Below are positions 10,428 to 31,865 of a DNA stretch of 64,000 bases, one piece after another. A program made the translations under genes and the position numbers. The stretch's first letter is position 1, and each line of letters opens with the position of its first letter. Location: the NCBI RefSeq assembly GCF_002305855.1, contig NZ_CP022163.1, positions 6,811,765 to 6,875,764 of the forward strand. The letters are read 5' to 3'. The notes beneath the pieces are model-generated. The model saw nothing but the letters and a program-made list of their open reading frames with translations, did no database searches and was not told the origin of the DNA. The stretch comes from Melittangium boletus DSM 14713. GTDB lineage: Bacteria > Myxococcota > Myxococcia > Myxococcales > Myxococcaceae.

Positions 10428-10448
10428 ATCGGATGTGTGTGTGTTCTG

Positions 10449-14521: not shown

Positions 14522-17326
14522 CTACGGGTTCGGAGCCGGAGCCACGCCGCGGAAGGCGGAGTTGGCCGGCGCCGTGGCCACGGTGGTCACGGCCGCGGTG
14601 CTCGTTCCATCATCCACGAAGGTGACGAGCTTGTTCTCGTTCCCCTTCAGGGTTGCCACGACGTGCACGGTCGTGCCGTCCACGACGGCGGCCACGCCCA
14701 CGGCGGGACCGGGGTTGGTCAAGGTCGCCTGGCTCCAGTTGCCCGAGCCGTCCTTGGTGAACTTGAACACGCCGCCGCTGTTGCCATCGTCCGCGATGTA
14801 CAGCGTGGCATCGCCCACGAAGAAGAACTGGTAGGGCGACGTGAGCGTCGTGCCGACCGGAAGACCGGACAGCACCGTCGCGGTCTGACCCGAGGCCGTG
14901 GGCAGGCCCGTGCCCACCGCGGAGACGGCCCGGTAGTCACCGCTGCCCGTGCTCAAGTAGAGCTGTCCGCCGAAGACGCTGACCACGCGCGAGTTGTTGG
15001 GATCCTTGAGGACCTGCGTGGACACGCCCGTGGAGCCCGCGGTGACGTAGTGGACGCCTCCACTGGCAGAGGCGCCGTTGCCCGCGACCCAGTAGGCGGA
15101 TCCATCCACCGTGGTGGCCGAACGCACGTTGCTGGTGTTGAAGGCGGCGTCCAACGTCGCGACGACGGAGGCGCTGCCCGCGCTATCGATGCGACCCACC
15201 ACGCGGGGCGTCGCGCTCGAGGTAGTGCCCGCCACGCTGGCCGTACCGGCGGGGGCGCTGTAGCCCGCGAACACCACGTAACGGCTGTCCGCCGACCGGC
15301 TCAGGAATCCCTCGGAGCCAGAGGAACCGGCGATGGTCAGACCCGTGACGGGCGTCGTGGCGGTGCGCGTGCCGGAGACCACGTCGTAGGTATCGATGGT
15401 CACGGCGGCGGCGGCGCCGCTGAGCGCGGCGGCGCCATCACCGACGCGCAGCACGGACACCCGGGTGGGTGATACGACGCAGGTGACCGACACGGTCGTC
15501 ACGTTGGCGGACGCCACCGTCCCGCTGCCATTGGCCACCGTGCAGTTGAGCCCCACGGGCTGCGTCTTCACGGCCACGGCGTAGGCCGCGCCGCTCAACA
15601 GGCCCGTGGTGAAGGTGAAGGTCGTGCTGCCGCCCGCGACGGACAGGTCATTCCCGCCGTTGTTGGTGAGCACCAGCGTCTTGCCGCTCGACAGGCCCGT
15701 CACGGTGCCGCCCACCGTGTACAGGTTGGCGCAGGTCACGGCCACGTTGGTGACATTCGCGCTCAGGTTGGTCCCACTGCCATTGGCCACCGTGCAGTGC
15801 TGGCCCGTGGGCTGCGCGGAGACGGTGACGGTGTAGCCACCGCCCTCGGCCACGGGGGTGGCGAAGGTGAACCCGCCGTCCGCCGTCAGGGTCAACTCGT
15901 CGCCGCCGTTGTTGCGCAGCTTCACGGTGCCGCCGGTGGCGAGTCCGCTCAGGTTGCCGCCCACGGTGTACGTGGTGGCCGAGCACGCCACGATCACGTT
16001 CGTCACGTCGGCGCCGCCCACGGTGCCCGAGCCGTTGGCCACGCTGCACTGCTTGCCCGCGGGGGCCGTCTTCACCGCCACGTCATAGGCCGCGCCCTGA
16101 TCCACCTTCTGGGTGAACTGGAAGGCGCCATTCGCGCTGACGGGCAGTTCTTCCGCGCCGTTGGTCAGCGTCACGGTCTCACCCGTGCCGAGGCCGCTCG
16201 CCGTGCCGCCCACGAAGAACTGATTGGTCACACAGGTGACCTTCACCGTCACATCCGAGGTGCCGATGGGCGCGGACGCGGTCTGCTCCGAGGTGCACGT
16301 CTGGGTCTCGGGCTGGGTGCCCACGGTGACGAAGTAGCTTCCGCCCTCGGTCACGCGGTTGTTGAAGGCCTTGGTCTCGTTCGTCGTGAAGGTGAGCGAA
16401 TCCGAGTCGTTGTTCTTGACGACCACCGAGCCCACCAGACCGCTCACCGTCACGTTCACGAGGTACGCGCGGGTCGTGCACGTCACGGCGATGTTGGTGA
16501 TGTTCGCGCTGCCCACCGTGCCCGTGCCCCGGGAGATGGTGCAGTTCTGGCTCTCCGGAGGCGTCTTCACCTTCACGTCATAGGGGGTGCCCGCCTCGAC
16601 TCCCGTCGGGAAGGCGAACGAGGTGTTGCCAGCCGAGCCCGTGCCCGTGAGGGTCACCGTCTGCTCCTGGGCCCCACTGCCAGTGCTCAGCACCAGGGTG
16701 CCGTTGAGTCCGCTGACGAATCCGCCCACCGTGAACTTCGAGGTGTCGCAGTTGACGGTGATGCTGGTCACGTCGGCACTGCCCACGGTGCCCTCGCCGC
16801 CGGACACGGTGCAGCGCTGCGCGGGGCCGGTGGGCTGGGTGGCCACGGTGACGGCATATGCCGCGCCGCTCTCCACGGGGGTGGCGAACTGGAAGGCGCC
16901 ATTGGCCGTCACGTTCAGCGTCTCCGCCCCGTTCCTGAGCTTCAGGCCCGTGCCCACGAGCCCCGTCACGGTGCCGCCCACCTTGAAGGCCGGAACACCA
17001 CACGTCACGGTGACGTCCGTGACATTGGCGGTGTAGATGAAGCCCACGCCATGGGTCACGATACATTCCTGGGTGGGTTCGGCGGGGTGGGTCGCTACCT
17101 TGACCACGTAGGTGCTGCCCGTGGATGCCTTGCGCTCGAAGGTGAAGGCGCCGTCACTGGAGATCGCCAGGGTCTCGCCGCCATACTCCAACACCAGTCC
17201 GCTGCCCTCGAGGCCCGTCACGGTGCCGCCCACCGTGTACTCCTGCGGAGCCGGTTCTGGGTCGGAGCAGCGCGCGAGCGCCAGTGGCAGAAGAAGCGTC
17301 AACACCAGTCGGAATGACAATCGCAT
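14522..17326 (-). CDS. Large secreted or cell-surface protein (935 aa) with seven tandem ~84-aa beta-sandwich repeats (GG-TVTGL...NG...ANGAF-F...QP..C.V..G.GTV....VT.V.V.C) and a ~330-aa C-terminal beta-rich domain
   Basis: Signal peptide MRLSFRLVLTLLLPLALARCS. The repeat periodicity is visible in both protein and DNA. Each repeat has two conserved Cys. The antisense ORF 15797..17317 was rejected. Confidence 0.65.
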   Translation of the reverse strand: MRLSFRLVLTLLLPLALARCSDPEPAPQEYTVGGTVTGLEGSGLVLEYGGETLAISSDGAFTFERKASTGSTYVVKVATHPAEPTQECIVTHGVGFIYTANVTDVTVTCGVPAFKVGGTVTGLVGTGLKLRNGAETLNVTANGAFQFATPVESGAAYAVTVATQPTGPAQRCTVSGGEGTVGSADVTSITVNCDTSKFTVGGFVSGLNGTLVLSTGSGAQEQTVTLTGTGSAGNTSFAFPTGVEAGTPYDVKVKTPPESQNCTISRGTGTVGSANITNIAVTCTTRAYLVNVTVSGLVGSVVVKNNDSDSLTFTTNETKAFNNRVTEGGSYFVTVGTQPETQTCTSEQTASAPIGTSDVTVKVTCVTNQFFVGGTASGLGTGETVTLTNGAEELPVSANGAFQFTQKVDQGAAYDVAVKTAPAGKQCSVANGSGTVGGADVTNVIVACSATTYTVGGNLSGLATGGTVKLRNNGGDELTLTADGGFTFATPVAEGGGYTVTVSAQPTGQHCTVANGSGTNLSANVTNVAVTCANLYTVGGTVTGLSSGKTLVLTNNGGNDLSVAGGSTTFTFTTGLLSGAAYAVAVKTQPVGLNCTVANGSGTVASANVTTVSVTCVVSPTRVSVLRVGDGAAALSGAAAAVTIDTYDVVSGTRTATTPVTGLTIAGSSGSEGFLSRSADSRYVVFAGYSAPAGTASVAGTTSSATPRVVGRIDSAGSASVVATLDAAFNTSNVRSATTVDGSAYWVAGNGASASGGVHYVTAGSTGVSTQVLKDPNNSRVVSVFGGQLYLSTGSGDYRAVSAVGTGLPTASGQTATVLSGLPVGTTLTSPYQFFFVGDATLYIADDGNSGGVFKFTKDGSGNWSQATLTNPGPAVGVAAVVDGTTVHVVATLKGNENKLVTFVDDGTSTAAVTTVATAPANSAFRGVAPAPNP

Positions 17327-17499
17327 GGGCAGGCCCTGGGTGTGGCGCACCGGCGGACGGCCCCCGAAGGCGAGGCCGCCATCAGCACGTGCTCCCGGCA
17401 TGGGAGTCCTTGCCCGTCTACCGTGCCCGCCGGGGGTCGTGCACGGAGGTTCTGTGACAGTCTGGCTTCATTTTTACAGGAGAAGCCGTATTCCCAGAA

Positions 17500-17561: not shown

Positions 17562-18161
17562 TCAGGGTGTTTCGGTGGGGGTCTCCACCTGCTGGTATTG
17601 GAACGAGAGCCGCGCCGGGGTGCCCGCGCTGTCGTAATACGAGAGCATCCGCAGCTTGAAGTAGCGCGCCTGGCTGCTGCGGACCACGTACAGCAGGGAC
17701 TCGCGCGGCAGGAGCTGGTGCTTCACGAGATCGTAGCCGTACCAGCCGCCCTGGACGCCGTTGAAGACCGTCTCCGAGGCGTCCTGTTGATAGCCCTCGG
17801 CGGGAGCGGTCGTGAGGGCATCCCAATCATTGTTCTGGAGCACCGCCACGCGCACCTCGCCCGTGGGGTTGCCGCCGCCTCCATTCGACGTGACGGTGAA
17901 GCGTTGGAACGCGAGATCCCACCCATTGCTGTCCAGGGCCTCGTCGGTCTTCATCTCCCGGCCCTCGTCGAGGTCGAAGTAGACCGTGCCCGACTTGCTC
18001 GTCGCGTCGACGAGGACGATGGCGCTGCCATCCTCTCGGGGCGTCACCTCGACGAGCGGCCCGGCGGAGATCTGCCCATCGAAGGGGTAGTCCTCGCGCA
18101 GGTCCGGCGCGCAGCCCGCCATCAGGAGCGCCAGCCAGGGCACCATGTCGTGTCGCCGCAT
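17562..18161 (-). CDS. HmuY-like lipoprotein (accessory of a TonB-dependent receptor)
   Basis: Lipobox WLALLMAGCAP; about 199 aa; immediately downstream of the receptor with a TGATG stop/start overlap. Confidence 0.5.
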   Translation of the reverse strand: MRRHDMVPWLALLMAGCAPDLREDYPFDGQISAGPLVEVTPREDGSAIVLVDATSKSGTVYFDLDEGREMKTDEALDSNGWDLAFQRFTVTSNGGGGNPTGEVRVAVLQNNDWDALTTAPAEGYQQDASETVFNGVQGGWYGYDLVKHQLLPRESLLYVVRSSQARYFKLRMLSYYDSAGTPARLSFQYQQVETPTETP

Positions 18162-20125
18162 CAGTAGTCCCATTGGATGCCGCCCAGGACGCCTCGCGGC
18201 GGGCGGGGGTTGAACTGTTGATCGCCCGCGTTGAGCAGGTTGTACCCGTTGACGAAGAGCTCGATTCCCGATGAGCGGAACCGGTAGGTCACCTGCGCCT
18301 CGAGGTCCACGTACGCGGGCGCCCCGGTCGGGGTGTCCTCCCCATAGCCAATCACATTGGCCATGCCACCCCCCACGCCCAGGAAGTACGTCCGGCAGCT
18401 CACCCAGGAGCCACGCACCACGGCCTCGAGGTTCAGCGGGCGGTAGCGCGTGGTGAGCTGCGCGTTGACGCGATGCCGGGAGCGGCCCTCCAGCGGGCGG
18501 TCGCGGGTGAGATCCCTCGCGTCCAGGAACGTGTACGCCAGATCCAGGTACGTCGAGCGCACGGGCAGCTTGACGCGGCCATTGAGCTCGATGCCCTGGG
18601 TGTAGGCGCGCGCCACGTTCTCGTAATTGAAGGTCACCGGATCGTCGGGATTCGGCACCCCGCCGGCGGTGACGTTGATGAGGTCGCGCAGCCGGGTATG
18701 GAAGGCGCTCGCGGAGAAGAGCCAGCCGGAGAGGGGTGGCCGCCAGTCCACGCCGACGTTCACCGCCGCGGAGTGCTCGGCCGTGAGGTCGGGGTTGCCC
18801 GACACCACGTAGCCGATGCCCGTGTTGGTGAAGCGCAGGTACAGCTCCTGGAAGGACGGCGGACGGAAGCCCAGCCCCGCGGACGCGCGCACCGTGAGGG
18901 CCGGGCTCGGGTCCAGCTTGATCGCGAGCCGGGGCGAGGGCGCGCCACCAAATTGGGAATCCAGGTCGAAGCGCAGGCCCGGCGCCACCTTCAAGCGGAG
19001 GCCTTCGCCGTCCGTGCCCGGGAGCACGTCCCACTCGTCCTGGAGGAACACGCCGCCGCGAATCCGGGACACGGGGCTGCGCTCCAACCGCGCGGAGTTG
19101 AGCCGTTCGCCGAGCACTTCCACGCCTCCGGTGAGCGCATGGGCGCCGAGGCGATGGTCTCCTTGCACCAGGCCCTCGTAGAGGCGGGTGAAGTTCTGGG
19201 AGTAGTCATCGAGCGCCCGGGAGCCGCGCTGATCCTGCAGGAGTTGTTCCCGGAACAGCCCGAAGTGTCCCCGGACGAGCAGGGAGGGGCCATCCGCGAG
19301 CTGATGCCGGCTCCCCAGCGAGACGTCGAACTGCTCCTGCCGCTGGCGCCGGTCCAGCACGGCGCCCGAGGGGTTGAGATCCACGGCGTTCTCGTCGCGC
19401 CGGGCGTATCCCCCGCGCAGCCAGACGCGCGTCCGTTCATCCGGCGCGTAGGCGAGTGACAGGTCTCCATCGAACCGCTGGAGTGCCGCGCCGCTCGTGG
19501 CCGCGTCCTCGGGTTGCCAGTCATAGGCATCGCGCCGGCGGAAGCCACCGCCCACCCTCAGCTCGAACGGGCCCTGCTTCGTGCCGGCGTTCGCGCGCGC
19601 GTCCCCCTCCAGCAGGGTTCCGAACATGCCCCGGCCTCCCAGTTCCAGGGGACGTTGGACGCGCCGCGTGATGAGGTTCACCACGCCGCCCATCGCATCC
19701 GCGCCGTAGAGCGCCGCGGCGGGACCCTTGACGATCTCCACCCGCTCCACTTCCCGCAGGCTGAAGCGTCCCAGGTCGAGGGTCGTGCCCACCCGGCCAC
19801 TCACCCGCTCGCCGTCGACGAGCACGAGCACGTACTCGGGGTCCAATCCCTGCAGGCGCAGCCCCACGCCCCGGAAGGTGTAGACGAGCTCCACGCCCGG
19901 TTGCTGCTGGAGCAACTGTCCCAGGTCCCTCACGCCGAGTGCGTCGATCTGTTCCCGGGTGATGACCTCGGTGGCCACCACCACGTCCTCCAGCTTGCGC
20001 TCCGCGCGCGAGGCCGTGACGACCGTCTGCTGGCGGCGGTTGGGCTCCTCGGGTTCGTTCGGTCCCGGAGCTGGGGCGGGAGGGGACTGGCTTGTCAGGA
20101 ACGCGGCCACCAGGGGGAGGATCAC
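18161..20125 (-). CDS. TonB-dependent outer-membrane receptor (haem/siderophore type); start uncertain
   Basis: Plug and barrel motifs ([15 protein letters not shown]..., [30 protein letters not shown]) and a C-terminal ...GGIQWDY with terminal aromatic. An in-frame GTG at 20125 was preferred over 20239, which would overlap the divergent gene. Confidence 0.7.
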
Positions 20126-20237
20126 GGGGCCATCTCTGCCCGGGATGCCGCGGACCGTCAATGGAACGGAGTTTGGAACCCGGGCCGCGAGGAGACCATT
20201 GCCGCTTCCAGTCCCTCGGCTTAAGTACGGAGCGGCC

Positions 20238-21359
20238 ATGACCGATACGTCCCAAGGTTTCGACCCGAAGAAGTTTGAAGCACTGGTGGCTCAGGTCCGA
20301 CAGGAGGCGCAGCGCGCCGGACCCTCCAAGCCCGCGGTGGAACTCCGCCCCTTGGATCCCTCCGACATCGAGGCCGTGCCCCAGGCGGGCACGCCCCTCT
20401 ACGAAGAGTGTTACCGGTTGGGTTCGGAGGCCCTGCGGCGCGGAGAGGTCTCCATGCTCATCCTGGTGGGGGGCGCGGGGACGCGCTTCGGTGGCGCGGT
20501 CAAGGCGCTGGCGCCCCTGCTCGACGATCGCACCTTCCTGGAACTGCGGTTGGAGAACATCCGAGGAGTCGCCCAGCGTCATGGGGCCTCGGTCCCCGTG
20601 GTGCTGATGACCTCCCCGCTCACGCACGAGGGCATCGAGGCCTACGTGAAGCCTCGGGGTCTGGGCCAGGACATCTTGCTGTTCCAGCAGCGCATGCTGC
20701 CGAGGCTCACGCCGAACTGGGAGCTGTTCCGCGACGCTGACGGGGAGTTGTCCTTCGCACCCTCCGGACACGGAGACTTCATCCGCGCCCTGCGCGAGAG
20801 CGGCACGGGAGCGCTCCTGCGCCAGCGCGGTGTGCGCCACGTGTTCTTCTCCAACGTGGACAACATGGGCGCGACGCTGGACCCCATCATCATCGGCCTT
20901 CATCTCAAGCTCGGCCGGGAGATGACGATCGAGGTGACGCCGCGCGCGAACCAGAATGGCACGCTCGACACGGGCGCGGCGCCGGTGCGCATCGGCGACC
21001 ATCCCCAGCTCGTCGAGCACGTGGACTCCAAGCAGCACCGGCTCATCAACACCAACAACCTCGCCTTCACGCTGGCGGCCCTGCTCGACAAGGACATCCA
21101 GCTGCCCTTCCAGGTGGCGAAGAAGAAGGTGGACGGGCAGGAGGTCATCCAGCTCGAGCAGATCACGAGCGAGGCCAGCGCGCTCGTGGGTCCCGACGGC
21201 CGCGCCCTGCTGTCGGTGGCTTTCATCGAGGTGCCTCGGGACAACCCCGTCACCTCGCGCTTCGAGCCCGTGAAGGCGCCCGAGGATCTGTCCTACGTCG
21301 TTCCCCGGTTGAGGCAGCGGCTGCAGGCGGCCGCCCAGGAAGGAAAGGGCTCCAAGTGA
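20238..21359 (+). CDS. UDPGP-family nucleotide-sugar pyrophosphorylase (eukaryote-type UTP-sugar-1-phosphate uridylyltransferase)
   Basis: [13 protein letters not shown] and APSGHGDF motifs; 373 aa. Confidence 0.7.
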
Positions 21360-22435
21360 ACGAGCTGGAAACGAAGCTGGCGCGCGTGCGCGAGGCCCTG
21401 GTGAAGCACGGTCTGGGCGCGGTTCGCTTGCGCGGCGTGGACTGGTTCGGCTGGGCCACCTGCGGCGGCTCGAACGTCGTCCTGCTCACGACCGATGTGG
21501 GCGTGGCCGAGGTGCTCATCACCCGGGAGGATGCCTGGGTGCTCACGGACGCCATCGAGGCGGCCCGGCTGGAGGAGGAGGAAGTGCCTCCGGGGTTGAA
21601 GATCTGGTCCGGCCCCTGGGCGGACAAGGCCCAGCGCGAGTCCTTCGTGGAGACGCACCGGAACGGGGCCCGGGTGGCGTCCGATCGGCCCGTCCTGGGT
21701 GAACTCCCCCTGCCCGTCGAACTGATCCATGCCCGCTGGTCCCCGCTGCCCCAGGAGTTGGAGCGCTACCGGGTGCTCGGACGGGACGCGGCCGAGGCGA
21801 TGACGGAGGTGTTGCTCGCGGCCCGGCCGGAGTGGACGGGCTGGGAACTGGCGGGCGCTGGCGCCGAGGCGTTGTGGGCCCGGGGCATCCACCCCGCGCT
21901 GACGCTGGTGGGGGAAGAGCGGCGTCTGCCCTTGCACCGCCACGCCACCGCGAGCCACGAGAAGCTGGGCGAGCGCGCCATGCTCGTCTTCTGCGGCCGC
22001 CGGCATGGGCTGTTCGCCAACCTCACCCGCTTCGTCTACTTCCGCCAACCCACCCCCACCGAGCGGCACCTGGTGGCGGACGTGGCCCGTGTCGAGGCCG
22101 CGGCCTTCGACGCCTCGCGTCCGGGCGAGACGCTGGGGGCCGTGTACGCGGCCATCGTGAAGGCCTACGCGGCGCTGGGCCACAAGGGCGCCGAGGCCTA
22201 CCATCACCAGGGCGGCTCGTGTGGCTACCTGTCCCGCGACGTCGTCGCGGGCCCGGACTCCTCCGAGGTGCTCCAGCCGCACAACGCCGTGGCATGGAAC
22301 CCGTCCCTGCCGGGTGCGAAGATCGAGGACACCGTCATCGTGGGAGAGCAGGGCGTGGAGATCCTCACGGTGGATCCGCGCTGGCCCACCGTGAGCATCG
22401 AGGGCCGCGCGCGGCCCGACCTCCTGGTGCGCTAG
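21356..22435 (+). CDS. Creatinase/prolidase-fold (M24-like) protein
   Basis: N-terminal creatinase_N-like region and C-terminal pita-bread-like segment (HHQGGSCGY...[15 protein letters not shown]). GTGA overlap with the upstream gene. Confidence 0.5.
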
Positions 22436-23562
22436 GCGCCGGTGGGTTGTGGCAGGAGGATCGCCGGGCGCTGGCCGGAACGGGCCGCGTAGCGCTCGGA
22501 GATCCTCTGGGCCACGGCGGTGCCGGTGCCGTCACGCGCCAGCATCACGACGGAGCCACCGAAGCCTCCGCCCGTGAGGCGCGCGCCATAGACGTCCGAG
22601 TCCTCGCGGGCCAGGTCCACGAGCAGATCGATCTCGGGGACGGACACCTCGTAGTCGAGGCGCTGCGAGTCATGCGAGGCGTAGAAGAGCTGGCCGAGCC
22701 GTTTCAAGTCGCCCGCGCGCAGGGCCTCCACCGTGGCGAGCACGCGCGCGTTCTCCGTCACGACGTGCCGCGTGCGCCGGCCCAGGGGATCGGGCAGACG
22801 CTCGGTCCGGGCAAGCTCCGCCTCGGGCAGGTCGCGCAACTGGGGAACGCCGAGGAGGGCCGCTGCGCGCTCACACTCCGCGCGGCGCACCCGGTAATCA
22901 CCCGCCGAGTGGTTGTGCGCGACGCCCGAGTTGATGATGACGACGTCCACGCCTGGGGGGAGGGGAACGCGCTCGAAGTTCATGTGTCGCGTGTCCAGGA
23001 AGAGCGCGACGCCGAGCCCCGCGATGCTGGCGGCCATGGGGTCCATCACGCCCACGGGAGCGCCCACGAAGTCCACCTCCACGCGCTGGCCGAGCAGCGC
23101 GAGCTGAACGTCGTCCAGGGGAAGGGAGAACGCGGCACGCAGCGCGCGCAGCAGGCCCACGTCCAGGGACGCACTCGAGGACAGCCCGCTGCCGAGCGGC
23201 ACCTCGGAGGAGATGCGCAGCTCCACCCCCGACAGCGTGTGACCCTCGCGCTGGAGCACGTGGGTGACACCCTGCACGTAGTCGAGCCAGCCCTTGCCGG
23301 CGGCTTCGGCGCCCAGCTCGAACTCGAGGATTTCGCCGGCCTGGCTCTTGTTGGCGCTGAAGGCCCGCACGCGCCGGTCGTCCCGCCGCCGCAACTCGAC
23401 GTGGGTCTGCTGGGGAATGGCCATGGGCAGCACGAAGCCGCCGTTGTAGTCGGTGTGCTCGCCAATGAGGTTCACCCGCCCGGGGGCATGCACGGCGACT
23501 TGGGCGGGGTGACCGAACAACTCTTGGAAGGATGGATTCACGTCAGGGCTCATCGATCTCAT
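22432..23562 (-). CDS. galK: Galactokinase (GHMP kinase)
   Basis: Galactokinase signature PGRVNLIGEHTDYNGG and GHMP motif SGLSSSASL...GGGFGGSVV. ATGA overlap with the upstream GH43 gene. Confidence 0.85.
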   Translation of the reverse strand: MRSMSPDVNPSFQELFGHPAQVAVHAPGRVNLIGEHTDYNGGFVLPMAIPQQTHVELRRRDDRRVRAFSANKSQAGEILEFELGAEAAGKGWLDYVQGVTHVLQREGHTLSGVELRISSEVPLGSGLSSSASLDVGLLRALRAAFSLPLDDVQLALLGQRVEVDFVGAPVGVMDPMAASIAGLGVALFLDTRHMNFERVPLPPGVDVVIINSGVAHNHSAGDYRVRRAECERAAALLGVPQLRDLPEAELARTERLPDPLGRRTRHVVTENARVLATVEALRAGDLKRLGQLFYASHDSQRLDYEVSVPEIDLLVDLAREDSDVYGARLTGGGFGGSVVMLARDGTGTAVAQRISERYAARSGQRPAILLPQPTGA

Positions 23563-25193
23563 TCAGGGGTGATGCGCAGCGAATCGAACCGGGCGGAGGC
23601 ACCCAGGGCCCCACCCACGGTGAGCCCCACGCGCACGCCGCGATCCCATAGAGGCAGGAAGTCACCGTTCTGCTCTTCTCCCACGTCCGTCCAGGTGGTG
23701 CCATCCGCGCTCACCGCGAAGTGGAACAGGTGGCCGTCCCTCGCGGTCATGCGCAGGTGGTACGTGTTGCCCGGTGCCGTGGGCGCGTCGGCGGTGGCGA
23801 CCGTCTCCTGCTTGCCACCCTGGCGGCGCCAGACCTCCACCCGGCCCTCGCGCAGCCCCACGCCGATGGCGTTCTCCGGGTCTCCCACCGCCGCGAGTCC
23901 CGTCTGGGCTCCCCCGGTGAGTCCGGAGACATCCACGCGGGTCTCGGCCCGATAGGCGCCGCTCTGGGTGGAGCGGGCGAGGATCGCCCCCACGGGGTTG
24001 TCCGCCCGGGCCTCGTTGGGCGCCAGCGTCAACTGCTCCTCGGCGAGGGTGACGGTGGGCTTCTGGCCATGAGGCCACTGCCAGCCGACCGCGAGCGTGG
24101 GGGTGGTGAACTCATCCGCGAAGGCGGCGGGCCTGGTCAGCACCTTGCCGCCTGGACCCCGGCGGGAGTTGAGGGTGGGCCAGCCGTCCTCGCCCCAGGT
24201 GATGACGTCCAGCATGCCCTGGCGCCCGACGTACACGGAGTCCGTGGCGCGGTAGGCGTGATAGAGCAGGTAGTCCCGTCCCTGGGCATCCGTCACCACG
24301 CTGCCGTGGCCGGGGCACTTGAAGGACTCGTTGTTCCTCATGATGGGGTTGAGCGGGTTCTTCTCCCAGCCCCCGAGCAGCGTGCGCGAGCGGGCCACGC
24401 CCATCCCGTAGTTGCAATCGCGGCCGCAGCACCCGCTGCCCGCGTAGAACAGATAGAACCAGCCGTTGCGCTTGAGGACGTAGGGCCCCTCGACGAGCTG
24501 TCCCTCCCAGGGCACGTCGTTGATGATGAGCTGGGTCTTCTCCCCGGTGAGCTTGTACCCGGTGCCGTCCTCGGACAGGGGTTGAGCCCAGATGGGAGTG
24601 GGCAGCCCCCGGCTGTTGCCGTCCATCTTCCATAAGAGGAAGAGCTTGTCGTTCTCGTCGCGGATGAGCGCGCCGTCGATGGAGCCGAGCTCCTCGCAGA
24701 CCAGCGGCCCATGGTCGGTGTACGGCCCCTGGACCTGGGCGGCGGTGGCCACGGCCACGCAGAGCGGGCCCCCCTTCTTCTTGGCCGTGTAGAGGACGAA
24801 GTAGCGGCCCCGGTCGACCGCCAGCTCCGGCGCCCAGTAATTGGCCTCGGACCAGGCGGGCGGCTCCTGGAAGACGGAGCCCACCTGCTCCCAGTGGAGC
24901 AGATCCGGCGAGCGCAGCAGCGGGTAGTGCGGCGCCCACTCGGAGGAGGTCGTCGAGGCCCAGTACTCCGTGCCCACCTTGATGACGGACGGGTCGGCGA
25001 AGTCCCCGGAGAGCACCGGGTTGATCACCTCCAGCGGGGGCACGGAAGGGGGCGGTTCGGGAGGTACTGGCTCCGGGGTGGGTTCCACCGGCGTGGGAGG
25101 CGGGTTGTTCTGGGTACAGCCCGGCGCGCAGAGCGCCGCGAGCGTGACCCATGAAAGCAATGCCGCGGAACGGAGTACACCGCGTGAGCGCAT
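23559..25193 (-). CDS. Lipoprotein glycoside hydrolase family 43 (beta-xylosidase/arabinofuranosidase-like) with a C-terminal beta-sandwich domain
   Basis: Lipobox LAALCAPGC; GH43 motifs DPSVIKVGTEYW, GPYVLKRNGWFYLFY. Confidence 0.8.
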   Translation of the reverse strand: MRSRGVLRSAALLSWVTLAALCAPGCTQNNPPPTPVEPTPEPVPPEPPPSVPPLEVINPVLSGDFADPSVIKVGTEYWASTTSSEWAPHYPLLRSPDLLHWEQVGSVFQEPPAWSEANYWAPELAVDRGRYFVLYTAKKKGGPLCVAVATAAQVQGPYTDHGPLVCEELGSIDGALIRDENDKLFLLWKMDGNSRGLPTPIWAQPLSEDGTGYKLTGEKTQLIINDVPWEGQLVEGPYVLKRNGWFYLFYAGSGCCGRDCNYGMGVARSRTLLGGWEKNPLNPIMRNNESFKCPGHGSVVTDAQGRDYLLYHAYRATDSVYVGRQGMLDVITWGEDGWPTLNSRRGPGGKVLTRPAAFADEFTTPTLAVGWQWPHGQKPTVTLAEEQLTLAPNEARADNPVGAILARSTQSGAYRAETRVDVSGLTGGAQTGLAAVGDPENAIGVGLREGRVEVWRRQGGKQETVATADAPTAPGNTYHLRMTARDGHLFHFAVSADGTTWTDVGEEQNGDFLPLWDRGVRVGLTVGGALGASARFDSLRITPE

Positions 25194-25525
25194 GAAGATG
25201 TCCTTGAAGGGGAGCGGCAGCCTAGGGCGGCGCGAATTGGCTGGTCAACGAAGGATGCCTTCACGCAACCACTCGCAGTGGGAGTTGCTGGAACGTGTCA
25301 GCCTCTTCACACTTCACCTGGAGTCAGGACGCCAACCCGTGCAATCATTGACGCAATGCATTGTCATGGAATTCGAGGAGAACGTGCAACGGCCCTGAAT
25401 GGCCCTTGGGAACACATGCAAGGCTGTCAAGGCTGTGCTTGACACCTCGCAGTCGCGTGTATCAGATGCGCTGCTCCTTGTTTGGCGCCCGTGGTAACGC
25501 CGCCCGAGAGTCATGAGTTAGATCT

Positions 25526-25546
25526 TCAATTTGTTCAATTTGTCGG
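25526..25546. promoter_or_regulatory. AT-rich direct-repeat motif TCAATTTGT-TCAATTTGTCGG just upstream of the GH43 start codon, in a divergent intergenic region
   Basis: A near-identical 18-mer (AATTTGTTNNRTTTGTCG, 16/18 positions) recurs at 33405..33423 upstream of the second sugar ABC operon. Confidence 0.35.
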
Positions 25547-25562
25547 AAAGGGAGCAGTGCTG

Positions 25563-27437
25563 ATGCGGAGAGGTCCGTCTTCGTCTTGGGGTTGGCGTCC
25601 CCTGCGTGCGCTGTTCCCCCTGCTTGGATTGCTGTCCCTCTCGGCCTGTCAGGGCAAGCCCTCCGAGACCCTTCCTCCCGTGACGGAGCCCGAGCCGCCG
25701 ACTCCCGCGCCGACTCCCGTGGAGGGGACCTTCACCAACCCCATGAAGATCTCCATTCCTGGCGGGAGCCTCGTGGAGAACTGCCCGGATCCAACGATCA
25801 TCCAGGGGCAGGGGCGCGACACCGCCTGGTATTTATTGTGCACGGCGGACCCGCTGAACGACGAGGACCGGGATGTCTCGCGCGAGTACAAGCAGCGCTT
25901 GATTCCCATCCTCAAGTCCGAGGATCTCGTCGAATGGAATTACATCGGGGATGCGCTGAGCACACGGCCCTCGTGGGCAAAGGCTGACTCCGATATCTGG
26001 GCTCCCGAGATCGCCTACTTCAACGACAAATATCATCTCTATTTCACGGTCGTGGAGACGAAGGCGGGCGGCAGCGCCATTGGCGTCGCCACCAGCGACA
26101 GCCCGGCCGGGCCCTGGGTCATCGCGGAGCGGCCCGCCGTGGAGCCCCACGAAGCGCCCTGCTGTGGAAACTCCAAGCGGTGGACGTATGATCCGGAAGT
26201 CCTCATCACCGCCAACGGTGACAAGTATATCTATTACGGCAGCTATTACGGTGGCGTGTCGGTGCGCGCGCTCTCGGAGGATGGACTCACCTCGGATCCG
26301 TACACCCAGGTGGAGGTCACCGTCGCCAATCGTTACGAGGCGCCCAGCATCGTCCAGCACGACGGGTACTATTACCTGCTGGTGTCCTCGGCGAACTGCT
26401 GCAACGGCCCCCTGACGGGCTATGGCGTCTTCGCCGGCCGTTCCAAGAGTCCTTACGGACCCTTCGTGGATCGCGAGGGCGTGCGTCTCACCCTCAACCG
26501 CGTGGGCGGCACGCCCGTGCTGGGCGCCAATGGCAACCGGTGGGTGGGAACGGGTCACAATTCCGTGTTCACCGACCCGGGTGGCCAGGACTGGATTGTC
26601 TATCACGCCATCGATCGATCCGAGCCCTACCTCGCGCCCGCCCCCAATGGCGAATTGCCTCCCAAGCGGCAGGCGCTGATGGACGCGCTGGACTGGGTGG
26701 AGGGCTGGCCCGTGGTGCGCGGAGGCCAGGGCCCCTCGGACAGCCCACAGCCGGCTCCCGCGGCTCGCGCCAACGAGAAGAGCCGCTACCTGCCCACCTA
26801 CGTGGAGCACGACGCTCCGGGTGCGCTCCTGGAATCGGACGAGTTCGAGGGCACCTCGCTGGGCTCTCCCTGGTCCTGGACGCGGGAGTCGAAGGCTGTC
26901 CATGGCGTGGGTGAGGGGGTCTTGCGCTTCGACACCCAGGCCGCGGATCTGCACGAGAACGACAACAGTGCCTCCATCCTCTGGAGGCCCGCGCCCGTGG
27001 GCAACTTCCTCGTCGAGACGAAGATGTCCCTGAACCTGCCGCCCGTGAGCTGCTGTCACAACTACGTACAGGCCGGGCTCCTCGTCCACACGGACGATGA
27101 CAACTACGTGCGGCTGACCCACGTGTCGAGCTGGGAGACGCGGCAGATCGCCTTCTCCAAGGAGCAGGGCCCCGTGGTGCCCGCGGGCCATCCGCGCTTT
27201 GGCGAGACGTTCGGCGGCCCCGCGGACGAGACCGTCTGGCTGCGGATCGCCCGGCGCGTTCAGGGCGCCGAGGAGCTGTACACGGCGTATTCGAGCCGGG
27301 ATGGCGCCACGTGGAGCCGGACCGCGACCTGGACCCACTCGCTGGGCGCGAGCGCCCGTCTGGGTCTGGTGTCGATGGGGGGCGCGGGCTTCACCGCCAC
27401 CTTCGATTACGTGCGTGTTCATGAGTTGAGGCCGTAA
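25563..27437 (+). CDS. Lipoprotein GH43-family glycoside hydrolase (arabinanase/xylosidase-like) with a C-terminal LamG/beta-sandwich domain
   Basis: Lipobox LLGLLSLSAC; RBS GGAAAGGGAG. GH43 five-bladed-propeller motifs (DPTII..., WAPEIAYFNDKYHLYFT, YYYLLVSS). Confidence 0.8.
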   Translation: MRRGPSSSWGWRPLRALFPLLGLLSLSACQGKPSETLPPVTEPEPPTPAPTPVEGTFTNPMKISIPGGSLVENCPDPTIIQGQGRDTAWYLLCTADPLNDEDRDVSREYKQRLIPILKSEDLVEWNYIGDALSTRPSWAKADSDIWAPEIAYFNDKYHLYFTVVETKAGGSAIGVATSDSPAGPWVIAERPAVEPHEAPCCGNSKRWTYDPEVLITANGDKYIYYGSYYGGVSVRALSEDGLTSDPYTQVEVTVANRYEAPSIVQHDGYYYLLVSSANCCNGPLTGYGVFAGRSKSPYGPFVDREGVRLTLNRVGGTPVLGANGNRWVGTGHNSVFTDPGGQDWIVYHAIDRSEPYLAPAPNGELPPKRQALMDALDWVEGWPVVRGGQGPSDSPQPAPAARANEKSRYLPTYVEHDAPGALLESDEFEGTSLGSPWSWTRESKAVHGVGEGVLRFDTQAADLHENDNSASILWRPAPVGNFLVETKMSLNLPPVSCCHNYVQAGLLVHTDDDNYVRLTHVSSWETRQIAFSKEQGPVVPAGHPRFGETFGGPADETVWLRIARRVQGAEELYTAYSSRDGATWSRTATWTHSLGASARLGLVSMGGAGFTATFDYVRVHELRP

Positions 27438-27484: not shown

Positions 27485-28462
27485 ATGAGATGGATGTGGA
27501 TGGTCGCGCTGATCGCGCTGATGGGCTGTAAGTCCGAGAACAAGGCCCCGGCGGCCGAGGGAGGCACGGCCGCCGCTCCCTCCGCGGAGAAGAAGCTCTC
27601 GGTGGGCTTTTCCCAGGTGGGTGCCGAGAGTGCCTGGCGCACGGCGGAGACCAAGTCCATCCGGGGCGAGGCCGAGAAGCGCGGCGTGGATCTCAAGTTC
27701 GCGGATGCCCAGGGCAAGCAGGCCCAGCAGATCCAGGCCCTCACGTCCTTCATCGCGCAGAAGGTGGACTTCATCGTGCTCGCGCCGGTCGTCGAGACGG
27801 GCTGGGAAGTCGTCCTGCGCCAGGCCAAGGAGGCCAACATCCCGGTCATCCTGGTGGACCGGGGCATCAAGGTGAGCGACGACAGCCTCTACACCACGCT
27901 CATCGCCAGTGATTTCGTGGCCGAGGGGCGCATGGCGGCCGAGTGGCTGGCGAAGCAGACCAACGGCAAGGCCAACATCTACGAGCTGCAGGGCTCCACG
28001 GGCGCCGCTCCGGCGATTGACCGGAAGAAGGGCTTCGAGGAGGGCATCCAGCAGTACCCCGAGATGAAGATCGTCAAGAGCCAGAGCGCCGACTTCACCC
28101 GCGCCAAGGGCAAGGAAGTCATGGAGGCGTTCATCAAGTCGGATCGCGATCAGATCCAGGCCGTCTACGCCCACAACGACGACATGGCCCTGGGTGCCAT
28201 CCAGGCCCTGGACGAGGCCGGAATGAAGCCGGGCGAGCAGGTCACCGTCATCTCGGTGGACGCGGTGAAGGGAGCCTTCGAGGCGATGGTCGCCGGCAAG
28301 CTCAACGCCACCGTCGAGTGCAACCCGCTCATGGGTCCGCTCGTCTTCGACACGATCAACAAGCTGCGCGCTGGAGAGAAGGTCGAGAAGTTCATCCAGA
28401 GCAAGGACCAGCTCTTCGAGAAGACGAGCGCGGCGCAGGTCATTGGTTCGCGTGAGTACTGA
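27485..28462 (+). CDS. Periplasmic sugar-binding lipoprotein of an ABC transporter (YtfQ-like furanose-binding, PBP1 family)
   Basis: Lipobox ALIALMGC; ribose/galactofuranose-binding-like sequence. Confidence 0.75.
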   Translation: MRWMWMVALIALMGCKSENKAPAAEGGTAAAPSAEKKLSVGFSQVGAESAWRTAETKSIRGEAEKRGVDLKFADAQGKQAQQIQALTSFIAQKVDFIVLAPVVETGWEVVLRQAKEANIPVILVDRGIKVSDDSLYTTLIASDFVAEGRMAAEWLAKQTNGKANIYELQGSTGAAPAIDRKKGFEEGIQQYPEMKIVKSQSADFTRAKGKEVMEAFIKSDRDQIQAVYAHNDDMALGAIQALDEAGMKPGEQVTVISVDAVKGAFEAMVAGKLNATVECNPLMGPLVFDTINKLRAGEKVEKFIQSKDQLFEKTSAAQVIGSREY

Positions 28463-29936
28463 GCCCGTCCTCGTCGCGCGCGGGGTGCAGAAGCGGTTTC
28501 CCGGGGTCCACGCGCTGGCGGGCGTGGACCTCGAGGTTCGGCCCGGTGAAGTGCATGCCTTGATGGGGCAGAACGGCGCCGGGAAGTCGACGCTCATCAA
28601 GATCCTGACGGGTGTCTACTCGAGGGACGGTGGGACGCTGACCCTCGAGGGTCGCGACTTCCACCCCAGCTCGCCCGGCGATGCCCAGAAGAAGGGCATC
28701 AGCACCATCTACCAGGAACTCAGCCTCATCCCGACCCTGACGGTGGCGGAGAACCTGTTCCTGGGCCGCGCGCCCCGCCGTTGGTTCGGGATCGACTGGC
28801 GCTCCATGCGGCGTCAGGCGGAAGAACTCCTCGCGACCTTCGATCTGCGCGTCGACGTGACCCAGCCCCTGGGTTCCCTGTCGGCCGCCGTGCAACAGCT
28901 CGTGGCGATCGCCCGCGCGGTGCACACCCAGGCCCGTGTCCTCATCATGGACGAGCCGACCTCGAGCCTCGACAGTCACGAGACGGAGGTGTTGCTCGAC
29001 ACCATCGTGCGGCTCAAGGAGCGGGGACTGGGGATCGTCTTCGTCACCCACTTCCTGGATCAGGTGTACCGCGTCAGTGACCGGATCACCGTCCTGCGCA
29101 ACGGCGCGCACGTGGGCACGTACGAGGCCTCCCAGCTGTCGCGGCTGGAGCTGGTCTCCCACATGCTGGGCAAGGTTCCCGATGAAGTGGAGCCCATGCT
29201 TCGCGAGCACGTGGAGGTGCCCAGGCCCGTGGTCGTGTCCGCTCAGGGGCTGGCGCGCCGGGGGGTGCCATCGTTCGATCTGACCCTGCACGCGGGCGAG
29301 GTCGTCGGCTTCGCGGGCCTGCTCGGCTCGGGCCGGACGGAGGCCGCGCGGCTGCTCTTTGGCGCGGATCACGCCCGGAGCGGCACCCTCAACGGGGAGT
29401 CCCCCAAGAGCCCCCGCCACGCGATCGCCATGGGAATGGCCTTCTGCCCCGAGGATCGGAAGGCGGAAGGCATCTTCCCGGAACTGTCCGTGCGCGAGAA
29501 CATCGCCGTGGTGGTTCAGCGCAAGTGGGGCTTCTTCGTGTCCCGCGCGCGCCAGGAAGCGCTCGCCCAGGAGTTCGTGACGAAGCTGGGCATCAAGACG
29601 CCTTCGGTCGAGCAGCCCATCCGCCTGCTCAGTGGAGGCAACCAGCAGAAGGTCATCCTCGCCCGGTGGCTCGCCTACGAGCCCCGCCTGCTCATCCTCG
29701 ATGAGCCCACGCGAGGCATCGACGTGGGGGCCAAGGGGGAGATCGAACGGCTCATCCACCAACTCTCCGCCAGGGGACTCGCGGTGCTCTTCATCTCGGC
29801 GGCGTTGGAGGAAGTGCTGCGCCTGTCTCATCGCATCGCCGTCTTCCGGGATCGCAAGAAGGTGGGCGAGTTGTCCCAGACGACGCTTCCGGAGGTCATG
29901 AAGGTGATTGCCAGTGAGGATTCCCATGCGCCCTAG
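28443..29936 (+). CDS. Sugar ABC transporter ATP-binding protein with two ABC domains (YtfR/RbsA-like)
   Basis: Two Walker A motifs and two signature (LSGGNQQKV) motifs; 497 aa. Confidence 0.85.
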   Translation: MVRVSTEPVLVARGVQKRFPGVHALAGVDLEVRPGEVHALMGQNGAGKSTLIKILTGVYSRDGGTLTLEGRDFHPSSPGDAQKKGISTIYQELSLIPTLTVAENLFLGRAPRRWFGIDWRSMRRQAEELLATFDLRVDVTQPLGSLSAAVQQLVAIARAVHTQARVLIMDEPTSSLDSHETEVLLDTIVRLKERGLGIVFVTHFLDQVYRVSDRITVLRNGAHVGTYEASQLSRLELVSHMLGKVPDEVEPMLREHVEVPRPVVVSAQGLARRGVPSFDLTLHAGEVVGFAGLLGSGRTEAARLLFGADHARSGTLNGESPKSPRHAIAMGMAFCPEDRKAEGIFPELSVRENIAVVVQRKWGFFVSRARQEALAQEFVTKLGIKTPSVEQPIRLLSGGNQQKVILARWLAYEPRLLILDEPTRGIDVGAKGEIERLIHQLSARGLAVLFISAALEEVLRLSHRIAVFRDRKKVGELSQTTLPEVMKVIASEDSHAP

Positions 29937-30906
29937 GAACTTCTGGCCGTGGGTGGCGTTGGGATCGTTGTTGATCTTCAACCTCTTCTTCACCCAGGGC
30001 TTCGCGCGGCTCGAGTTCCGCGACGGCAGGCTCTTTGGCACGCTCGTGGACATCTTCCAGAACGGCGCGCCCGTCATGCTCCTGGCGGTGGGCATGACGC
30101 TCGTCATCGCCCTGGGTGGAATCGATCTGTCCGTGGGCTCGGTGATGGCGCTGTCGGGCGCGGTCGCGGCGCTGCTGATGACGGAGCACGCGCAGCCGGT
30201 GCCCGTGGCGGTGGCGCTCGCGCTGGCGGTGGCGCTCGGAATCGGAGCCCTCAATGGCGCGCTCGTCACCTATGGGGGCGTCCAACCCATCATCGTGACG
30301 CTGGTGTTGTTGGTGATGGGGCGGGGTGTGGCGCAGACGCTCACCCAGGATCAGAAGGTCCGCTTCGAGGTGCCGGCCTTCGAGTTCATCGGCAACGGGA
30401 CGGTCTTGGGCCTGCCGTTCCCCGTGCTCCTGGTGGCGGCGGTGGCCCTGCTCGTGGGGCTGCTGCTGCGCAACACGGCGACGGGTCTCTACCTGGAGGC
30501 CATGGGGAGCAATCCGCGAGCGGCCCGGCTCTGTGGCCTGCGGGTGCATGTCATCCAGATGCTGGCCTTCATGGCGTCGTCGCTGTGCGCGGGCCTCGCG
30601 GGGCTCATCGCCGCGGCGGACATCAAGGAAGCGGATGTGGCCAATGCCGGACTCTACCTGGAATTGGACGCCATCCTCGCCGTCGTCCTGGGCGGCACCA
30701 GCCTGACGGGGGGCCGCGCCAACCTGGTGGGCTCGCTCATTGGCGCCACCTTCATCCAGACCCTCACCACCATGCTCCAGATGCGCGGAGTCATCACCGA
30801 GCACACGCTCATCATCAAGGCCGCCGTGGCGCTCGGCGTGTGTTTCATGCAGACCCCCGCCTTCGAGCGGTTGACCCGGCGGGTCCGGTCCGCGGAGGCC
30901 GCGTGA
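29926..30906 (+). CDS. Sugar ABC transporter permease (YtfT-like)
   Basis: Polytopic membrane protein. An ATG start at 29926 was preferred over the TTG at 29908. Confidence 0.8.
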   Translation: MRPRNFWPWVALGSLLIFNLFFTQGFARLEFRDGRLFGTLVDIFQNGAPVMLLAVGMTLVIALGGIDLSVGSVMALSGAVAALLMTEHAQPVPVAVALALAVALGIGALNGALVTYGGVQPIIVTLVLLVMGRGVAQTLTQDQKVRFEVPAFEFIGNGTVLGLPFPVLLVAAVALLVGLLLRNTATGLYLEAMGSNPRAARLCGLRVHVIQMLAFMASSLCAGLAGLIAAADIKEADVANAGLYLELDAILAVVLGGTSLTGGRANLVGSLIGATFIQTLTTMLQMRGVITEHTLIIKAAVALGVCFMQTPAFERLTRRVRSAEAA

Positions 30907-31865
30907 ACTTCCTGCGCAAGCACGTCACCGTCCTGGCGGGAGGGCTCGTCTACCTCCTGCTCTACGCGATCGCGGCCATGCGGTACGACGGCTTCTTCTC
31001 GCTGCCGGTCTTCATCAACTTCCTGTCCAACAACGCGGTGCTCGGCATCGTCGCGGTGGGCATGACGTTCGTCATCCTCTCGGGCGGAATCGACTTGTCC
31101 GTGGGCGCCGTCATGTCGTTCTCCAGCGTGCTCATCGGCGTGCTCATCATGAAGCATGGCTGGAACGTGTACGCCGCCATCGCCGCGTCGCTCGTGTGTG
31201 GCGCCACGTTGGGGACGTTGATGGGCGCCATCATCCACTCGACGGGCATCAAGCCCTTCATCGTCACGCTCGCGGGCATGTTCTTCGTGCGGGGCCTCGC
31301 GTTCCTCATCCACCTGGAGTCCATCGCCATCTCGGATGCGCGGCATACGGCGCTCGCCATCGCCCGGGTGGGTCCCCTGCCGCTCATCGCCGTCCTGTTC
31401 CTGGGGTTCGTCGCCGTGGGCTGGTACGTGGCGGTGCTCACGCCCTTTGGCCGCAACGTGTACGCGCTGGGGGGAGGGGAGGATGCGGCACTGCTCATGG
31501 GCCTGCCCGTGCGGCGCACGCGGATCGCCGTCTACGCGGTGAGCGGCTTCTGCGCGTCCTTCGCCGGAGCGGCGCTGTCCTTCTACTTGTCGAGCGGCAG
31601 CCACCTGGAGGGCGTGGGCATGGAGCTGGATGCCATCGCCACCGTGGTGATTGGCGGCACGCTGCTCGCGGGTGGGGTGGGCTCGGTGTTCGGCACGCTC
31701 ATTGGCGTGCTGATGCTGGGGCTCATCCTCACGTCCATCACCACCTACGAGGGGATGATGAGCTCGGGGATGACCCGGGTGGCCATCGGCGCGCTGCTGC
31801 TCGCGTTCGTGCTCCTGCAGAAGGTGCTGACGCGGCGGGTGGCGGGCGTGGGCCGCGCCACCTGA
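30903..31865 (+). CDS. Sugar ABC transporter permease (YjfF-like)
   Basis: GTGA overlap with the upstream permease. Only the 3' two-thirds of track ORF 29949..31865 is real. Confidence 0.8.
   Translation: MNFLRKHVTVLAGGLVYLLLYAIAAMRYDGFFSLPVFINFLSNNAVLGIVAVGMTFVILSGGIDLSVGAVMSFSSVLIGVLIMKHGWNVYAAIAASLVCGATLGTLMGAIIHSTGIKPFIVTLAGMFFVRGLAFLIHLESIAISDARHTALAIARVGPLPLIAVLFLGFVAVGWYVAVLTPFGRNVYALGGGEDAALLMGLPVRRTRIAVYAVSGFCASFAGAALSFYLSSGSHLEGVGMELDAIATVVIGGTLLAGGVGSVFGTLIGVLMLGLILTSITTYEGMMSSGMTRVAIGALLLAFVLLQKVLTRRVAGVGRAT

Follow-up and report, generated by a model that had tools for sequence, protein, structure and literature searches.

Gene organization of the locus

We analyzed a stretch of 64,000 nucleotides from Melittangium boletus DSM 14713 (contig NZ_CP022163.1, positions 6,811,765 to 6,875,764), hereafter the window, in which a gene for a UDPGP-family nucleotidyltransferase lies close to a gene for galactokinase (GalK). 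The window has a high GC content (0.64 to 0.75), and its best protein matches are found in Archangiaceae, namely Archangium primigenium (85%) and Cystobacter fuscus (81%). An earlier note on this DNA had described a UDPGP-family enzyme with characteristic motifs at position 20238 and a nearby canonical galactokinase separated from it only by an M24-fold gene, adjacent to GH43 enzymes and a "furanose" transporter. All of these genes are borne out by the coordinates and by profile matches to PF01704, PF00557 and TIGR00131, and the neighbors comprise two GH43 genes and an ATP-binding cassette (ABC) importer. The principal genes, with lengths in amino acids (aa), are as follows:

20238..21359, plus strand: UDPGP-family nucleotidyltransferase, group A, 373 aa (PF01704, E = 5.6e-42)
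21356..22435, plus strand: M24-fold (pita-bread) protein, 359 aa (PF00557, E = 6.6e-13); third-position GC content (GC3) 0.93
22432..23562, minus strand: galactokinase GalK, 376 aa (TIGR00131, 297 bits); second gene of the GH43-GalK operon
23559..25193, minus strand: GH43 glycoside hydrolase (PF04616, E = 5.4e-68; PF17851); first gene of the GalK operon
25482..27437, plus strand: second secreted GH43 enzyme (PF04616, E = 2.1e-49); heads the transporter operon
27485..31865, plus strand: four-gene sugar ABC importer, YtfQ/YtfR/YtfT/YjfF-like

The UDPGP gene begins with an ATG at 20238, preceded by GGAG 8 nt upstream, ends at 21359 and has a GC3 of 0.89. A GTGA overlap joins it to the M24 gene in a translationally coupled arrangement, and we thus take the two to form one operon. 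Similarly, an ATGA overlap joins the GH43 gene at 23559-25193 to the GalK gene, which makes these a second operon on the opposite strand. The M24 and GalK genes are convergent, and the stop codons of both fall within the palindrome CTAG at 22432-22435, so that a terminator could not fit in between. A. primigenium shows this type of stop overlap too, whereas H. minutum has a spacer of ~95 nt. Divergent from the UDPGP gene are a TonB-dependent receptor and an HmuY-like lipoprotein of the haem-uptake type (17562-20239, minus strand). The mechanically called receptor start at 20239 overlaps the UDPGP ATG at 20238, so the true start probably lies further downstream.

Affiliation of the UDPGP-family enzyme

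The UDPGP protein matches PF01704 with 144.3 bits (cutoff, 22) over profile positions 52 to 344 of 413, and matches no NCBIfam model. It contains both the glycine-rich motif (G78-G86) and SGHGDF (S176-F181), and its catalytic motifs are intact and align to those of AtUGP: the GGxGTR loop, H178 of GHGD, N206 and D208, E260, and K346 of RFxPVK. Across 40 family members, G78, G79, T82, R83, K89, H178, D180, N206, D208, E260, R341 and K346 are invariant. The sugar-contacting residues E260 and N273 are conserved with UDP-glucose pyrophosphorylases (UGPases). An AlphaFold2 (AF2) model of the protein (predicted local distance difference test, pLDDT, 90.2; predicted template modeling score, pTM, 0.90) resembles the structures of UGP enzymes and of UDP-N-acetylglucosamine pyrophosphorylases (UAPs), with TM scores of 0.70 to 0.81 in Foldseek. 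In the model, a single helix (residues 348-371) replaces the C-terminal domain of the UGP and UAP enzymes. The three-domain UDPGP architecture is absent, the match ending at position 344 of the profile and at residue 374 of the 469 in AtUGP.

A search of the PDB with the single sequence returned a plant UGPase at the top (E = 2e-23), followed by UAPs, and no UDP-sugar pyrophosphorylase (USP) at E <= 0.01. With a family profile built from 40 members, a UGPase was again the top match (E = 5e-61). Clades were placed by profile bit scores in place of a formal phylogeny with references, and the USP references were L. major 3ogz, 8tg2 and MbUSP. UGPases of plants, fungi and animals scored 198 to 210 bits, trypanosomatid UGPs 142 to 150, UAPs 97 to 138 and USPs 48 to 70. 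Both searches thus identify UGPase-A as the nearest clade. In Foldseek, the model matches UAP and UGP structures about equally well, so the two cannot be told apart by fold alone. The earlier note had named placement within strictly specific UAP clades as grounds for abandoning its proposal, but the UAPs score below all of the UGPases, which places the enzyme outside those clades.

The same scores speak against the plant/protist-type USP that the earlier note had proposed. USPs are the most distant clade, and those in the PDB have ~600 to 640 aa and three domains, compared with 373 aa and no C-terminal domain in the window enzyme. We rejected orthology to USPs, which are the weakest of the PDB matches. 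The relatives of the enzyme are bacterial, from Myxococcota and Actinomycetota, and give no indication of descent from a eukaryotic gene. Among bacterial enzymes, the Bifidobacterium USP known as BLUSP is reportedly full-length, at ~500 aa, and thus longer than the members of the window enzyme's short subfamily.

UGPase-A (A. thaliana 1z90/2icy, sugarcane 5weg and human 3r2w) belongs to the same Pfam family as the window enzyme, with ~25% identity and a common Rossmann-like core fold. The two share the GHGD histidine, NxD, the equivalent of E260 and the catalytic lysine of RFxPVK. However, the window enzyme is ~100 aa shorter, with one helix in place of the C-terminal domain, and its nucleotide-binding loop reads GGAGTRFGG in contrast to LNGGLGTTMG in UGPase-A. 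It also has T-G-A in place of K-G-G and lacks six residues after the conserved Glu. Unlike UGPase-A, the subfamily is linked or fused to GalK. Judging from its sequence, the enzyme represents a separate UGPase-like branch of the UDPGP family that is bacterial, short and devoid of the C-terminal domain.

Distribution of the short subfamily and its sugar loop

An exhaustive HMMER search of 1.84 billion representatives yielded 131 clusters at E <= 1e-30. Their lengths are mostly 355 to 390 aa, which marks these short proteins as a subfamily of their own. When one genome per species was scanned, at least 545 subfamily loci were located, in Myxococcota and in Actinomycetota (Thermoleophilia, Gaiellaceae). 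The actinomycetotal contexts look like housekeeping ones, with genes of the IF-2B family and for S-adenosylhomocysteine (AdoHcy) hydrolase. No protein from M. xanthus, M. fulvus or Stigmatella is among the 120 matches listed, in which sister genera score 420 to 440 bits. Nearly all of the source-named proteins among 240 listed subfamily matches carry the label UTP--glucose-1-phosphate uridylyltransferase. We found no paper on the short bacterial UDPGP subfamily or on natural GalK-UDPGP fusions. A few members have additional sequence: P0180 is an RNase J-UDPGP "fusion," and P0141, P0144 and P0186 have unknown N-terminal extensions.

We refer to the window protein and loci L001 to L044 (Myxococcaceae, Archangiaceae and Anaeromyxobacteraceae) as group A and to loci L045 to L085 as group B. 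The two groups compare as follows:

Nucleotide-binding loop: GGAGTRFGG in group A; GGMATRFGG in group B
Sugar/phosphate loop: LD[A/T/V]GAAP in group A; GD[K/M/L/T]GGAP in group B
After the conserved Glu: six-residue deletion in group A; EGFRFP in group B

The K-G-G loop of UGPases corresponds to T245-G246-A247 in the window protein. Nearly every group-A protein has [T/A/V]-G-A there, with G-G in a few, and the five natural GalK fusions described below all depart from K-G-G as well. By comparison, x-G-G, most often K-G-G, is kept in 41 of 41 group-B proteins, none of which is linked to GalK. The hydroxyl OH-4 is the position that tells glucose from galactose. In the corresponding loop of TbUGP, Lys256 makes a contact to the beta-phosphate, and Gly258 binds OH-4 of glucose through its backbone (PMC3270307).

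Recurrent linkage and fusion of the UDPGP and GalK genes

GalK scores above the cutoff of the equivalog model TIGR00131 (297 bits; cutoff, 226.65), contains the Pfam domains PF10509 (82 bits), PF00288 and PF08544, and carries the canonical galactose-binding signature NLIGEHTDYNGG. It matches P. furiosus GalK 1s4e in a PDB search (E = 1e-65) and is 43% identical to E. coli GalK. To describe the neighborhoods, we searched 84 related loci by tblastn with the window proteins and also drew on the gene tables of fetched loci. In 10 of the 44 group-A loci, a GalK gene is found within 10 kb of the UDPGP gene, and the arrangements number at least five:

Arrangement 1: UDPGP-M24 convergent with GalK-GH43 (window, A. 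primigenium, H. minutum)
Arrangement 2: GH43-GalK-UDPGP, co-directional (A. minus)
Arrangement 3: GalK-GT4-Glf-epimerase-GalE cluster beside UDPGP (Myxococcus sp. Y35, second copy of A. minus, Pyxidicoccus)
Arrangement 4: GalK and UDPGP divergent, 138 bp apart (L042, L043)
Arrangement 5: GalM-GalK ~8 kb from UDPGP (L016, second copy of C. exercitus)

At L027, GalE directly adjoins the UDPGP gene. By our own estimate, GalK would be adjacent by chance at ~0.2% per locus in a genome of ~10 Mb, and we found no neighbor commoner than GalK at the Myxococcota subfamily loci. A. minus (L006, L014) and C. exercitus (L008, L016) each possess two group-A UDPGP paralogs. Each UDPGP copy of A. minus has its own GalK, one in a catabolic-looking cluster with GH43 and an ABC transporter and the other in a biosynthetic-looking cluster with Glf and GT4.

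We also identified five natural fusions of GalK and UDPGP, 779 to 840 aa long, in metagenome-assembled genomes (MAGs) of Myxococcota ("Deltaproteobacteria"). Both domain orders occur, GalK-UDPGP in P0128 and UDPGP-GalK in P0129, P0152, P0168 and P0212, and a neighbor-joining tree places the fusions on at least three separate branches. P0212 (MDP2342565.1) and P0129 are each identical in an NCBI MAG and an independent Logan assembly, and no GalT or GalE gene was found near either of these two fusion genes. At the loci L088 and L090, fusion genes occupy positions 10001-12523 and 10001-12340, respectively. Public annotation names the fusions "galactokinase" only. They resemble Bacteroides fragilis FKP (fucokinase/GDP-fucose pyrophosphorylase) and the zebrafish glucuronokinase/pyrophosphorylase, in which a GHMP kinase is fused to the nucleotidyltransferase of the next step. 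The likeness is one of fusion architecture; those enzymes act on other sugars, and the window itself has separate genes.

The recurrence in several arrangements, together with the gene fusions, makes the pairing more than chance adjacency, and the functional coupling of UDPGP with GalK is well supported. The adjacency could in principle carry no function and simply reflect inherited Archangiaceae synteny, with the UDPGP-M24 operon serving an unrelated process. The two operons are indeed convergent and not shared, and the M24 gene is syntenic too, though its homologs elsewhere have unrelated contexts. However, inherited synteny cannot explain a pairing that takes at least five arrangements and five fusions, in both orders and on separate branches. 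We strongly disfavor this explanation and consider it very improbable.

A cluster of GalK, GT4, Glf (UDP-galactopyranose mutase), a fusion of GH1-like and epimerase parts, and GalE was observed at L003 (1043-6681), L087 (8285-13898), L014 and L041. The GH1-like/epimerase fusion protein is ~780 aa long and unusual. The presence of the GalK-GT4-Glf-GalE cluster in relatives implies a galactofuranose-containing glycan made from salvaged galactose.

Absence of GalT from the window and related loci

Bacterial galactose metabolism is normally described as the Leloir pathway (GalK-GalT-GalE) or the tagatose-6-phosphate pathway. Pfam scans of ~56 open reading frames (ORFs) in the 64-kb window revealed no GalT, GalE, GalM or Glf domain, and the make-up of a Leloir operon (GalT and GalE/GalM with GalK) is not present there. 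A tblastn search with E. coli GalT gave 0 matches in the window and ~90 related loci, 14 of which bear GalK. This query is of the E. coli and not of the Gram-positive type; the Pfam annotations of the fetched loci, used as a second check, likewise include no GalT. The earlier note had made its proposal depend on there being no galT nearby, and the scans of the window ORFs and the tblastn search agree with it in this respect.

A candidate GalT-independent route of galactose activation

We propose a GalT-independent, Isselbacher-type activation of galactose, from galactose via galactose 1-phosphate (Gal-1-P) to UDP-galactose (UDP-Gal), and give it somewhat better than an even chance on the sequence data. 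In this scheme, for which we infer what each enzyme acts on and which way the flux runs, the secreted GH43 enzymes would free a furanosyl or pyranosyl sugar, and the YtfQRT/YjfF-like ABC system would import it. Galactose may be delivered as galactofuranose, which would then equilibrate. GalK, to go by its family membership, would convert galactose to alpha-D-Gal-1-P. The 373-aa UDPGP enzyme would then turn Gal-1-P and UTP into UDP-Gal and pyrophosphate, as suggested by the gene linkage, the natural fusions and the intact catalytic apparatus. The UDP-Gal could pass to glycosyltransferases or, in relatives, be converted by Glf to UDP-galactofuranose or by GalE to UDP-glucose (UDP-Glc), neither gene being present in the window. 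The salvage pair for sugar 1-phosphates suggested in the earlier note is therefore retained in its functional tie to GalK, which the arrangements and fusions support, but not as one operon.

Gal-1-P is a substrate of mammalian UGPases but not of TbUGP (PMC3270307), and M. xanthus given galK is killed by galactose (PMC8963815). The missing M. xanthus homolog among the 120 matches listed is in line with the proposed route, though suggestive only. More specifically, the subfamily may consist of dedicated UDP-galactose pyrophosphorylases that work with GalK independently of GalT and are fused to it in some Myxococcota, with the change from K-G-G to x-G-A in the OH-4-binding loop as the switch of specificity from glucose to galactose. 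We regard this narrower proposal as possible, at rather less than an even chance.

Alternatively, the UDPGP enzyme may be a plain UGPase (EC 2.7.7.9) that either has a housekeeping role or supplies UDP-Glc for a GalT encoded elsewhere. The proximity or fusion to GalK would then serve to deliver both GalT substrates and would not mark consecutive steps. Several observations favor this alternative and weigh against galactose activation. The top sequence matches are UGPases, the nearest characterized enzymes being specific for or preferring glucose 1-phosphate (Glc-1-P), and E260, N273 and the catalytic residues are kept as in UGPases. The protein is publicly annotated as UTP--glucose-1-phosphate uridylyltransferase. 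Most group-A loci (34 of 44) have no GalK within the available flanks and have variable neighbors. One subclade has an alpha-amylase-family gene in place of GalK, which would fit Glc-1-P, and such a neighbor occurs in six loci. Among the top 120 group-B matches listed, none is a paralog from cultured Archangiaceae or Myxococcaceae that could take the housekeeping role, although all of these matches are metagenomic and so say little on cultured strains.

Further points count against the galactose route. The UDPGP and GalK genes of the window are adjacent but not co-transcribed, since they belong to convergent operons. The loop substitution is weak evidence on specificity because it is correlated with phylogeny. 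Our searches for GalT and GalE were confined to the 64-kb window and the related loci. In the literature, we found no biochemical characterization of any short-subfamily member.

Against a plain UGPase stands the finding that no GalT adjoins the 14 GalK-bearing loci or the fusion genes; Leloir genes normally cluster, and the Leloir pathway needs only catalytic UDP-Glc. The distribution also looks patchy and unlike that of a housekeeping gene, with no M. xanthus, M. fulvus or Stigmatella protein among the 120 matches listed and with two copies in A. minus and C. exercitus, and the enzyme departs from true UGPases in the K-G-G loop. We consider this alternative unlikely overall.

Predicted sugar release and import genes

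The GH43 gene at 23559-25193 encodes a C-terminal concanavalin A (ConA)-like domain and an N-terminal signal/lipobox-like sequence. Among solved structures, GH43 xylosidases and arabinofuranosidases come closest, although with an E value of only 1e-28. The second GH43 enzyme (25482-27437) has an endo-arabinanase-like core and a ConA-like/DUF1349 C terminus, and its nearest solved structures are endo-1,5-alpha-L-arabinanases (E = 1e-30). The importer genes downstream are as follows:

27485-28462, plus strand: binding protein (NCBIfam YtfQ, 384 bits; cutoff, 510)
28443-29936, plus strand: ATPase (NCBIfam YtfR, 631 bits; cutoff, 850)
29908-30906, plus strand: permease 1 (NCBIfam YtfT, 302 bits; cutoff, 535)
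30903-31865, plus strand: permease 2 (tblastn with the A. minus homolog, 85% identity)

The E. coli galactofuranose system YtfQ/YtfR/YtfT/YjfF provides the best NCBIfam families for the importer, with all scores below the equivalog cutoffs. The importer is followed by a LamB-type porin and a MalE-type ABC system.

These neighbors raise the question of a functionally broad USP, acting on Gal-1-P, Glc-1-P, L-arabinose 1-phosphate (L-Ara-1-P), xylose 1-phosphate (Xyl-1-P) and others, and thus salvaging both galactose and arabinose. The relation of the GH43 enzymes to arabinanases and arabinofuranosidases would fit such a role, and E. coli YtfQ is reported to bind both galactofuranose and arabinofuranose. 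Bacterial and plant USPs take L-Ara-1-P and Xyl-1-P (PMC5974040), and xylose salvage by a promiscuous bacterial GalK and a uridylyltransferase has been described (PMC11267548). However, USPs are the clade most distant from the window enzyme, and the kinase scores as a galactokinase at the equivalog level and bears the canonical signature for galactose binding. We found no arabinokinase-specific feature and no UDP-arabinose-using gene, and the genes that co-cluster in relatives (Glf, GalE and GalM) are galactose specific and point to galactose. We judge a broad USP to be improbable, and the salvage of arabinose to UDP-arabinose raised by the earlier note finds no specific support.

The xylose salvage case is that of Solitalea canadensis, in which GalK and a promiscuous glucose-1-phosphate uridylyltransferase provide UDP-xylose (PMC11267548). 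The Solitalea fusion is engineered, and its size of ~70 kDa implies a partner of ~30 kDa, which suggests an enzyme of the GalU type and not of PF01704.

The M24-fold gene and other genes of the window

We aligned the M24 protein with P. furiosus prolidase 1pv9, whose metal ligands we take to be numbered D209, D220, H284, E313 and E327. The first three align to C213, N222 and a serine, E313 lies opposite a gap and E327 alone is retained, such that the protein lacks four of the five canonical ligands. C213, N222, H283, H284 and E324 are invariant in 12 homologs, and R215 and R216 are invariant in the family as well. The substitutions, likewise invariant in the family, depart from the ligand set D, D, H, E and E of M24 metallopeptidases, and the protein is probably not a metallopeptidase.

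The M24 homologs (P0271 to P0390; L086, L087) are ~360 aa long and share 64 to 96% identity across Myxococcota and Chloroflexota. Those of Chloroflexota have no UDPGP or GalK gene nearby and often adjoin a Peptidase_C26/GATase gene. A Peptidase_C26 gene is also present in the window, at 41838-42617. The M24 gene adjoins UDPGP in five loci of Myxococcaceae and Archangiaceae, in three arrangements. Because this very conserved family occurs in Chloroflexota without UDPGP or GalK nearby, we take the M24-fold gene to be probably a bystander to the sugar pathway.

Three other genes of the window were noted. An ORF of ~1,500 aa without a Pfam match (53298-57917, plus strand) lies in the part of the window with the highest GC content and the strongest GC skew. 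Its product begins with a region resembling a methyltransferase and continues with ~1,200 aa of coiled coil rich in A, E, R and L, in which near-identical copies of AEVEASLAEKDAEVEAGQ recur. A protein of 959 aa (14522-17401, minus strand) has no significant Pfam domain, with only a subthreshold match to DUF4369, and its homolog of 934 aa in A. primigenium also adjoins an HmuY/TonB-receptor pair. Lastly, the gene at 225-2582 (plus strand) joins CBM56 with a domain like that of di-haem oxidoreductases/peroxidases (PF06537), and it is unusual for a carbohydrate-binding module to be fused to a haem enzyme; we take CBM56 to be a beta-1,3-glucan-binding family.

Implications for galactose metabolism in Myxococcota

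The route from a sugar kinase to a pyrophosphorylase is regarded as a plant and trypanosomatid trait. The USPs of plants and of Leishmania and Trypanosoma (EC 2.7.7.64) follow the logic that we propose here, with GalK and then a UDPGP-family enzyme and no GalT (PMC3270307, PMC6329318). BLUSP, the promiscuous UDP-sugar pyrophosphorylase of Bifidobacterium longum/infantis, has been paired with a galactokinase in vitro for the one-pot synthesis of UDP-sugars (PMC5974040, PMC11399408). The combination of a sugar-1-kinase with a UDPGP-family pyrophosphorylase is thus already known from plants, Leishmania and in vitro work with GalK and BLUSP (PMC6329318, PMC5974040). In contrast, the literature that we searched appears to contain no description of a bacterial UGPase-like subfamily that is truncated, has a changed OH-4 loop, is repeatedly linked to GalK and forms natural bifunctional fusions.

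The proposed route is not a new principle, but as a pathway prediction it is credible, would be easy to test and has some value for biocatalysis. If correct, it would correct the blanket annotation of these proteins as UTP--glucose-1-phosphate uridylyltransferase. It would also provide compact enzymes for UDP-Gal synthesis, including GalK-UDPGP in a single polypeptide, where chemists now combine separate GalK and BLUSP. A machine-learning study of 2013 found PF01704 ("transferases") to be enriched in the genomes of lignocellulose-degrading bacteria and left this unexplained (PMC3585893). Salvage of sugar 1-phosphates beside glycoside hydrolases could account for that link. If the proposed route is correct, predatory and polysaccharide-degrading Myxococcota would have a kinase-pyrophosphorylase route of their own, based on another, far shorter branch of the UDPGP family.

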